Virus record (IMG/VR): IMGVR_UViG_3300029822_000864
Location: 1-27,863 of that record
From: a virus
Taxonomy: Duplodnaviria > Caudoviricetes
Strand: one strand, 5' to 3'
Length of the DNA: 27,863 nt
Positions 1 through 368 of the stretch are shown one piece after another. Below the pieces are notes generated by a model. The model saw nothing but the letters and a program-made list of their open reading frames with translations. It was not told the DNA's origin and searched no databases. Positions within the stretch are counted from its first letter, which is position 1. Each line of letters begins with the position of its first letter. Made by a program: the position numbers and the translations under genes.

Positions 1-1
1 C

Positions 2-97
2 AGCCTTTTGTGCAGGGATGCCGCATTCCGCGTATATATTTAACAATAGGTCAAAGGCATAAACCAAAATATGTCCGCTGCCCATGCAGGGGTCTAA
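2..97 (-). pseudogene. pglX: 3' part of a PglX-like (BREX type 1) adenine methyltransferase, starting at motif I and running off the left edge; apparently split by the element
   Basis: Manual translation of the minus strand 97->2 gives [32 protein letters not shown], matching the [21 protein letters not shown] pattern I recognise from PglX. In-frame sequence upstream of ~100 is not PglX-like. Missing from the ORF track because its stop lies outside the window. Confidence 0.72.
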
Positions 98-368
98 CAA
101 GACGTAATCTTTGATACAAGGACGTGATGTGCATGAAGGGCGTGAAAAGCCCGTAACTGTGCGGTTTCTTCGTCTGCTGCCGTTTCTGGCGAGAATTGTC
201 CGGTCGCGAAAAACGGTCTGATTCATCTGTTTTCCTGCTGCCATCACGGGCTTTGTCACCTCCTTCGAGAAACCCCTTATGCAATCCTTGAAAGGTTCAG
301 TGTGAAATTAAAATGTTCTGTCTATCCTTGAAATGTACAAGGTTATCATTGAACGGTTCAGTCAGACT

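Follow-up and report, generated by a model that had tools for sequence, protein, structure and literature searches.

The window analysed here, a 27,863-nt stretch that makes up the entire record IMGVR_UViG_3300029822_000864 (Caudoviricetes) and has no flanking DNA beyond it, is very probably the cargo end of a prophage lying inside a DNA-methyltransferase gene, with its insertion point at the GA of the Asp codon in motif I. The same degree of confidence, given jointly to both statements, attaches to what we regard as the best explanation of the sequence comparisons: that the prophage is placed by a recombinase at Asp-Pro codons of methyltransferase genes, and that it would disarm defences where that subunit is needed. 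The junction, a 2-bp core, dyad arms, the empty site and alternative target genes can all be seen directly in sequence. The window is organized as follows.

1..94, minus strand: host DNA that opens the 3' portion of a stand-alone adenine methyltransferase gene of the PglX family, interrupted at the motif-I Asp (94/94 in genome G459; proteins P0014 and P0023)
93..94, minus strand: crossover core, GA of the Asp codon (2-nt overlap of the 5' flank and window 1-94 in a contig of run X12 and in G459)
95..119, minus strand: element attachment arm (attR, P half), one 25-bp half of a dyad that has GA at its centre (common to at least 120 GTDB junctions; 20/25 dyad match to the arm of contig G006:C295)
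95..264, minus strand: Shine-Dalgarno-like sequence (259-264) and a leader of ~51 codons that reads in frame into the host gene's 3' half, putatively expressed (sequence; database fusion proteins)
269..276, no strand assigned: short motif with four further copies just inside the far end (motif recurrence), a possible accessory binding site
369..1711, minus strand: DEDDh exonuclease-BRCT gene and vsr (Pfam)
1715..15669, minus strand: DISARM-like cluster (drmC, drmB, drmA, drmD, 5mC methyltransferase) enclosing a type III res/mod pair (PADLOC; NCBIfam)
16008..19037, minus strand: ABC three-component (Lamassu-like) genes (Pfam CTD11, MC7, DUF2326; weak LmuA/LmuB in PADLOC)
19297..27863, plus strand: phage early/replication module with Gam-like, Sak4-like, helicase, primase, RusA and regulator genes and the start of an HNH gene (PHROGs; Pfam)

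The first-pass annotation of this DNA had recognized the PglX motif I region in the peptide encoded on the minus strand from 97 to 2, had taken the in-frame sequence upstream to be unrelated to a methyltransferase, and had placed the integration site within the motif-I codons. Each of these readings is upheld. PglX is the top PADLOC match of the ORF at 2-259 (residues 49-82, E=1.3e-12), the upstream in-frame part is element DNA, and the crossover can be narrowed to the GA of the Asp codon at 93-94. The Leu codon at 95-97 belongs to the element arm and host DNA starts at the Asp codon. Window positions 1-94 match the intact G459 gene at 94/94 letters with divergence immediately upstream of GA, and position 94 is the branch point for contigs of four public runs aligned to window 1-1500 (X1, X3, X12 and X15; the comparison covered runs with a share of at least 0.5 and left out the left flank of X15). 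Runs X1 and X3 are possible origins of the window DNA, and X12 belongs to a different study. Junction comparison shows a conserved arm, TTGTATCAAAGA-N11-TA, directly preceding the Asp codon. There is no second copy of the junction 12-mer within the window, and the exact junction is absent from the viral_contigs set.

Across the family, 12 of 67 end clusters have an in-frame start directed toward the host 3' half, against 2 and 3 in the other two frames; we rejected a universal in-frame restart on the strength of that small fraction and because the leader amino acids are not conserved. A promoter/terminator scan gave no terminator-like site on the minus strand of window 1-600 and only weak promoter-like matches. 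Short repeats of two sequence types lie just inside both ends (window 269-276; L355 3960-4160; L137 8000-8050), and are perhaps bound by a small HTH/zinc protein encoded before the recombinases.

Since the record ends with the window and holds no second copy of the junction, the far end had to be found in other contigs. Bin G006, which is mixed and has 90 recombinase matches, carries window 8000-27379 at 100% on two contigs and the partner arm on three, of which C295 also has a 5' flank of PglX type and a pair of large serine recombinases (527 aa and about 590-650 aa). The link between C295 and the window is indirect, resting on the mixed bin, arms, flank and depth; C295 and window-end depths are equal in X1 (8-9 vs 7.6-9.1) and X12 (42-45 vs 44) and disagree in X3 (about 10 vs 133), and X15 yields nothing for C295. 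Contig C369 of the same bin, which has the best arm (21/25), was rejected as the far end, its host flank being another gene. No contig spans the whole prophage, and rightward chaining from the window never reached the far end. The recombinases, short core and pglX 5' half that had been expected there are present on C295 or at its junction; the brxC expected ahead of them has no match in G459. The start of an IS110-like transposase (L355:1-297) adjoins the recombinase module of the window's element. The phage genes within the window are for replication only, and head, tail and lysis genes occur in relatives with the same arms.

The empty site is represented by a contig and by a genome, in both of which the reading frame is restored, as had been anticipated. 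The contig, from X12, runs from the C295 flank straight into window 1-94, the two overlapping by 2 nt, and in G459 the far-end flank (55/55) and window 1-94 likewise overlap by 2 nt. Lysogen and empty forms are both present in X1, where the junction contigs hold only 28 host letters each (the bar of the tool is 31). Where a single contig holds both ends of a relative, the flanks joined at GA give back the frame and motif I or DPPY in four of four cases. The arms of these four form a 17-20/25 dyad; three of the elements are 17-18 kb and decayed-looking by eye, and two have identical arms, one lying in hsdM and the other in mod. Provirus G001 was followed at both ends, and its hsdM 5' half ends before the Asp codon and gives way to a mirror arm and then two serine recombinases. 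The attR arm is absent from the records of four close prophage relatives.

The interrupted gene is held intact and at 100% by G459, a genome of one 1.99-Mb contig (G459:C1:1361671-1364775). Its protein, P0014, scores 834 bits on NF033452 (PglX, BREX-1) against a cut-off of 500, with the PglX-family motif I and NPPY intact at 261 and 441. Database proteins match both halves of the gene exactly, with intact forms of 1035/1070 aa that include two members named Caproicibacterium PglX, and P0023 is an 826-aa lysogen-form protein, found on 4 contigs, that combines the window leader with the complete 3' half. Three different element ends (the window, P0019 and L005/L006) sit at the same codon of the same allele, and further alleles, one of them named from Lactobacillus, likewise carry the window leader in fusion. 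A near-identical element end is found in proteins P0040 and P0041, named from Lactobacillus, and in run X15, which suggests hosts spread widely over Clostridia and Bacilli. Five of nine non-fused cluster members (P0003, P0015, P0018, P0022 and P0024) have a Gly to Asp change in motif I, which may inactivate it.

In G459 a metF-like gene and a metH-like gene flank it, upp, rpiB, tsaB/E, fhs and feoB are further neighbours, and the genome has neither a PglZ nor a BrxC match. With these two proteins missing and housekeeping genes on either side, no BREX system is shown knocked out at the window locus, and the earlier claim that lysogeny disrupts host BREX there is not supported. The stand-alone PglX-family gene is present in all 12 genomes of the genus Caproicibacterium, of which three have PglZ, and methionine/folate genes adjoin it in the genus genomes examined; it is possibly a domesticated BREX methyltransferase. 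The attachment arm is absent from the 12 GTDB genomes of the host genus.

The same element is found in other genes. At locus L003 it recurs at 99.94% over 10,052 nt; the junction there is with another pglX allele, after which come PglZ and BrxL (PADLOC 6e-275 and 0), the 5' side lying off the contig. The leftward continuation predicted for the window, the rest of pglX and then pglZ and brxL, is therefore seen in this allele, and the window's own leftward DNA is PglX-like in G459 without pglZ or a BREX system. In X12 the element is instead bordered at each end by hsdM-like sequence, and its far end in X3 passes into a third methyltransferase-like flank; these readings come from loose ends of 30 and 26 letters, translated by eye. 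Its occurrence in an orphan pglX-like gene, a BREX pglX and hsdM implies that the target is a codon motif and not pglX.

A scan of GTDB for the arm followed by GAYCC, a pattern that forces Asp-Pro, returned at least 120 junctions, with about 150 estimated; isolate genomes are included, and the matches are mostly from Bacillota. By motif, the 120 junctions listed comprise 80 that are motif-I-like, 16 at DPPY and 24 others. PADLOC was applied to 72 of the 80 long-flank host sides (eight short ones among L010-L089, and L090-L129, were left out) and assigned 29 to type I, 8 to IIG, 8 to PglX, 7 to type III, 2 to type II, and one each to DrmMI and a mad2-like class, with 16 unassigned. The type III targets are hit at the catalytic DPPY motif. 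The host 3' half is short (<150 aa) in 29 of 68 cases, which makes a good number of the insertions off-target or dead ends and means that reversal is often lost. In one genome, G008, a brxC-pglX 5' half and a 3' half-pglZ lie on separate contigs, and at L089 (G007:C42) an element with an intact type 1 BREX is inserted in a host pglX, a swap of BREX for BREX.

Because Asp-Pro had been forced in the GTDB scan, phage contigs were rescanned without that constraint, giving 120 loci, 92 of them distinct; the bar was placed at the 99th random percentile of the arm score, which had been trained on the forced set. The 56 distinct junctions above the bar fall into 20 in methyltransferase genes, 11 in other recombinase genes, 3 of attP type (arm-GA-arm) and 22 others, some of which are degenerate; below the bar are 6 recombinase junctions, 2 methyltransferase junctions and 1 of attP type. 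This split across kinds of target indicates a loose specificity. Related arms sit in the D[DE]G motif of the serine recombinases of other elements (L206, L208 and 17 phage junctions), insertions which possibly immobilise those elements, and a recombinase gene is also where G047/G048, the nearest relatives among prophages, have their end. When far ends were scanned with the host side unconstrained, 10 of 11 were preceded by a methyltransferase-like 5' half, as judged by eye. Orphan methyltransferases, an ICE snf2-methyltransferase and RNA-methyltransferase-like genes are further targets.

In a tree of 27 recombinases (4 of the 31 loci have no full protein) a starred clade of 16 has strong arms. 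Near-identical recombinases in this tree adjoin motif I of hsdM, DPPY of mod and an IIG-like gene, and the comEC phages stand apart. Motif I and DPPY share the codons GAY-CCN-SCN-TR, and one recombinase could thus use both motifs.

The defence cargo of the window is of mixed layout at 1715-15669, where DrmD occurs with a 5mC methyltransferase and a type III pair; DrmA, DrmB and DrmD score above the NCBIfam cut-off and DrmC below it. The window's own mod gene keeps an intact DPPY site, and its 3' region is GC-poor. Defence matches (BREX types, RM, Wadjet, CBASS, Hachiman, Gabija) are present in 26 of 34 GTDB element ends, a count made on ends of 9-10 kb and their four largest ORFs at E<=1e-25, with one weak match, no random control and some stretches that may enter host islands. 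Just inside the end of another element, L055, a type I system is interrupted. A type 4-like BREX with BrxP and a DndA/SspA-like cysteine desulfurase is carried as cargo at L349 (G051), L012, L019 and L046, settings that comprise an arm-GA-arm junction next to it as well as integration in mod genes. Near the element end, PDC-S14 recurs at 6 of the 34 loci (L013, L020, L060, L067, L072 and L087).

We propose that the pair of large serine recombinases would catalyse integration by recognizing a loose Asp-Pro codon pattern present in many methyltransferase genes, and that insertion would inactivate the methyltransferase. In type I, III and IIG systems restriction needs the methyltransferase-bearing subunit. 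Insertion would silently disarm an entire type I, III, IIG or BREX system wherever restriction requires the split subunit, and precise excision would restore the gene. The sister insertions in BREX, type I, type III and type IIG methyltransferases likely switch those defences off. At the window locus the victim is a lone PglX-like gene, so that the gain would be a conserved and dispensable landing site, and the in-frame leader might keep the 3' half or the downstream metH expressed.

The proposal that the element specifically targets BREX pglX, disables host BREX at the window locus and substitutes its own defence operon describes the same element in L003 correctly, where a PglX 3' half, PglZ and BrxL follow, and the relatives in G008 and L089 also sit in BREX or host pglX. 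As an account of the window it is very improbable, however, given a host gene with housekeeping neighbours and no PglZ or BrxC in its genome, a PglX share of 8 in 72 classified targets, and the presence of the same element in hsdM. It would still apply there if the lysogen strain had a separate BREX operon served in trans by this gene. What survives of this 'defence replacement' is an outcome: relatives commonly end up with phage-borne defence in place of the host's, though not at the window locus, and this is not shown as its purpose. A chimeric assembly at a short shared word might be expected of metagenomic contigs, the more so as DPC codons are common to many genes, but the same junction appears as protein P0023 on 4 contigs, the far-end junction matches, and at least 120 junctions fall at one codon, isolate genomes included; we think an artefact of this kind highly unlikely. 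Least credible, if only by a narrow margin, is the alternative raised at first pass that the fragment is a silent partial copy from a pglX shuffling (inversion) locus, or a pglX captured by a phage. Frequent pglX disruption and programmed PglX inversions are known, but the gene is single-copy and intact in G459, no inverted repeats or invertase lie beside it in 20 kb of that genome, the break is flanked by a dyad arm common to insertions in unrelated genes, and the allele carries three different element ends at that one codon.

Whether the target preference evolved because destroying methylation-based defences helps the phage (its siblings, its own cargo, or as a reversible switch) concerns why and not how, and selection of this kind is compatible with recombinase-directed insertion at Asp-Pro codons. 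It is a possibility that we take seriously while leaning against it. Most classified targets are subunits required for restriction, 26 of the 34 element ends bear defence matches, and lysogen and empty forms coexist in X1; against this, a phage must have passed restriction before it integrates, the targets also include orphan methyltransferases, the ICE snf2-methyltransferase, recombinase genes and RNA-methyltransferase-like genes, and the cargo count has no random control. Equally tentative is a broader scheme in which a Bacillota prophage clade of wide occurrence, with a single specificity for the Asp-Pro codons that the SAM-binding and catalytic motifs share, would put type I, III, IIG and BREX systems out of action without autoimmunity and at the same time bring in defences whose methyltransferases are themselves fresh targets, a self-renewing turnover of defence islands; the ends would supply an in-frame start and a tail, and both halves of the enzyme could be made. 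Deletion of brxX has been reported to be non-toxic in one study (10.1101/2024.04.12.589305).

Insertion into methyltransferase genes has its published precedent in the Tn1806-like streptococcal ICEs, which use another core; what is new here is a phage variant of methyltransferase-targeted integration. According to the relevant papers (PMC12942858, PMC13006639, PMC4701971, PMC7563491), these ICEs are serine-integrase elements that split several methyltransferase genes, among them hsdM, snf2-methyltransferase and Eco57I-like genes, and can be nested in other elements; for ICESag167 such insertion has been shown by conjugation. They are conjugative and have three integrases and a 4-bp GGGG-type repeat, whereas the window's element has phage genes, two recombinases, a GA core at an Asp codon and 25-bp dyad arms, and the targets of its family include BREX pglX and the DPPY of type III mod. 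The streptococcal prophages of the phi1207.3 / phi10394.4 type have the same recombinase module at their lysis end, with 52% identity to the C295 recombinase, but form a separate clade, lie in comEC according to record annotation and are without the arm of the window's element.

The best phage matches to the C295 recombinase (51-71%) are in Ca. Heliusvirales, a likeness known from the recombinase alone. Two deposited Heliusvirales genomes (L361 and L364) end in the far-end arm after a methyltransferase-like 5' half, with an IIG match for one. These 'complete genomes' annotate host methyltransferase 5' halves as hypothetical phage genes. The consulted sections of the Heliusvirales paper (PMC11283538) and two preprints contain nothing on integration sites. 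Type 1 BREX PglX/BrxX is of the same family as the window's host gene and shares its motif I and NPPY, although the latter stands without a BREX operon; the parts seen of PMC12479173 and PMC3485107 hold nothing on the Asp-codon integration site. In the survey of Durrant et al. (PMC10083194), type I RM genes are among the targets of LSRs and multi-targeting LSRs exist, and defence genes are described as rarely targeted and not a common strategy. The recombinase clade of the window's element is a counter-example, in largely uncultured Bacillota. In a literature search that had most subscription journals and bioRxiv supplements outside its scope, no publication turned up that describes prophages at this site or treats BREX as a target for integration.

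These elements provide Bacillota of the gut, rumen and fermenters with a concrete path to the breaking and swapping of methylation-based defences, among them BREX. They explain a class of 'truncated pglX/hsdM/mod' annotations and give exact att sites. With a codon motif shared by many genomes as its target, such a recombinase may also serve as a broad-host integration tool, including for caproate-producing Caproicibacterium.
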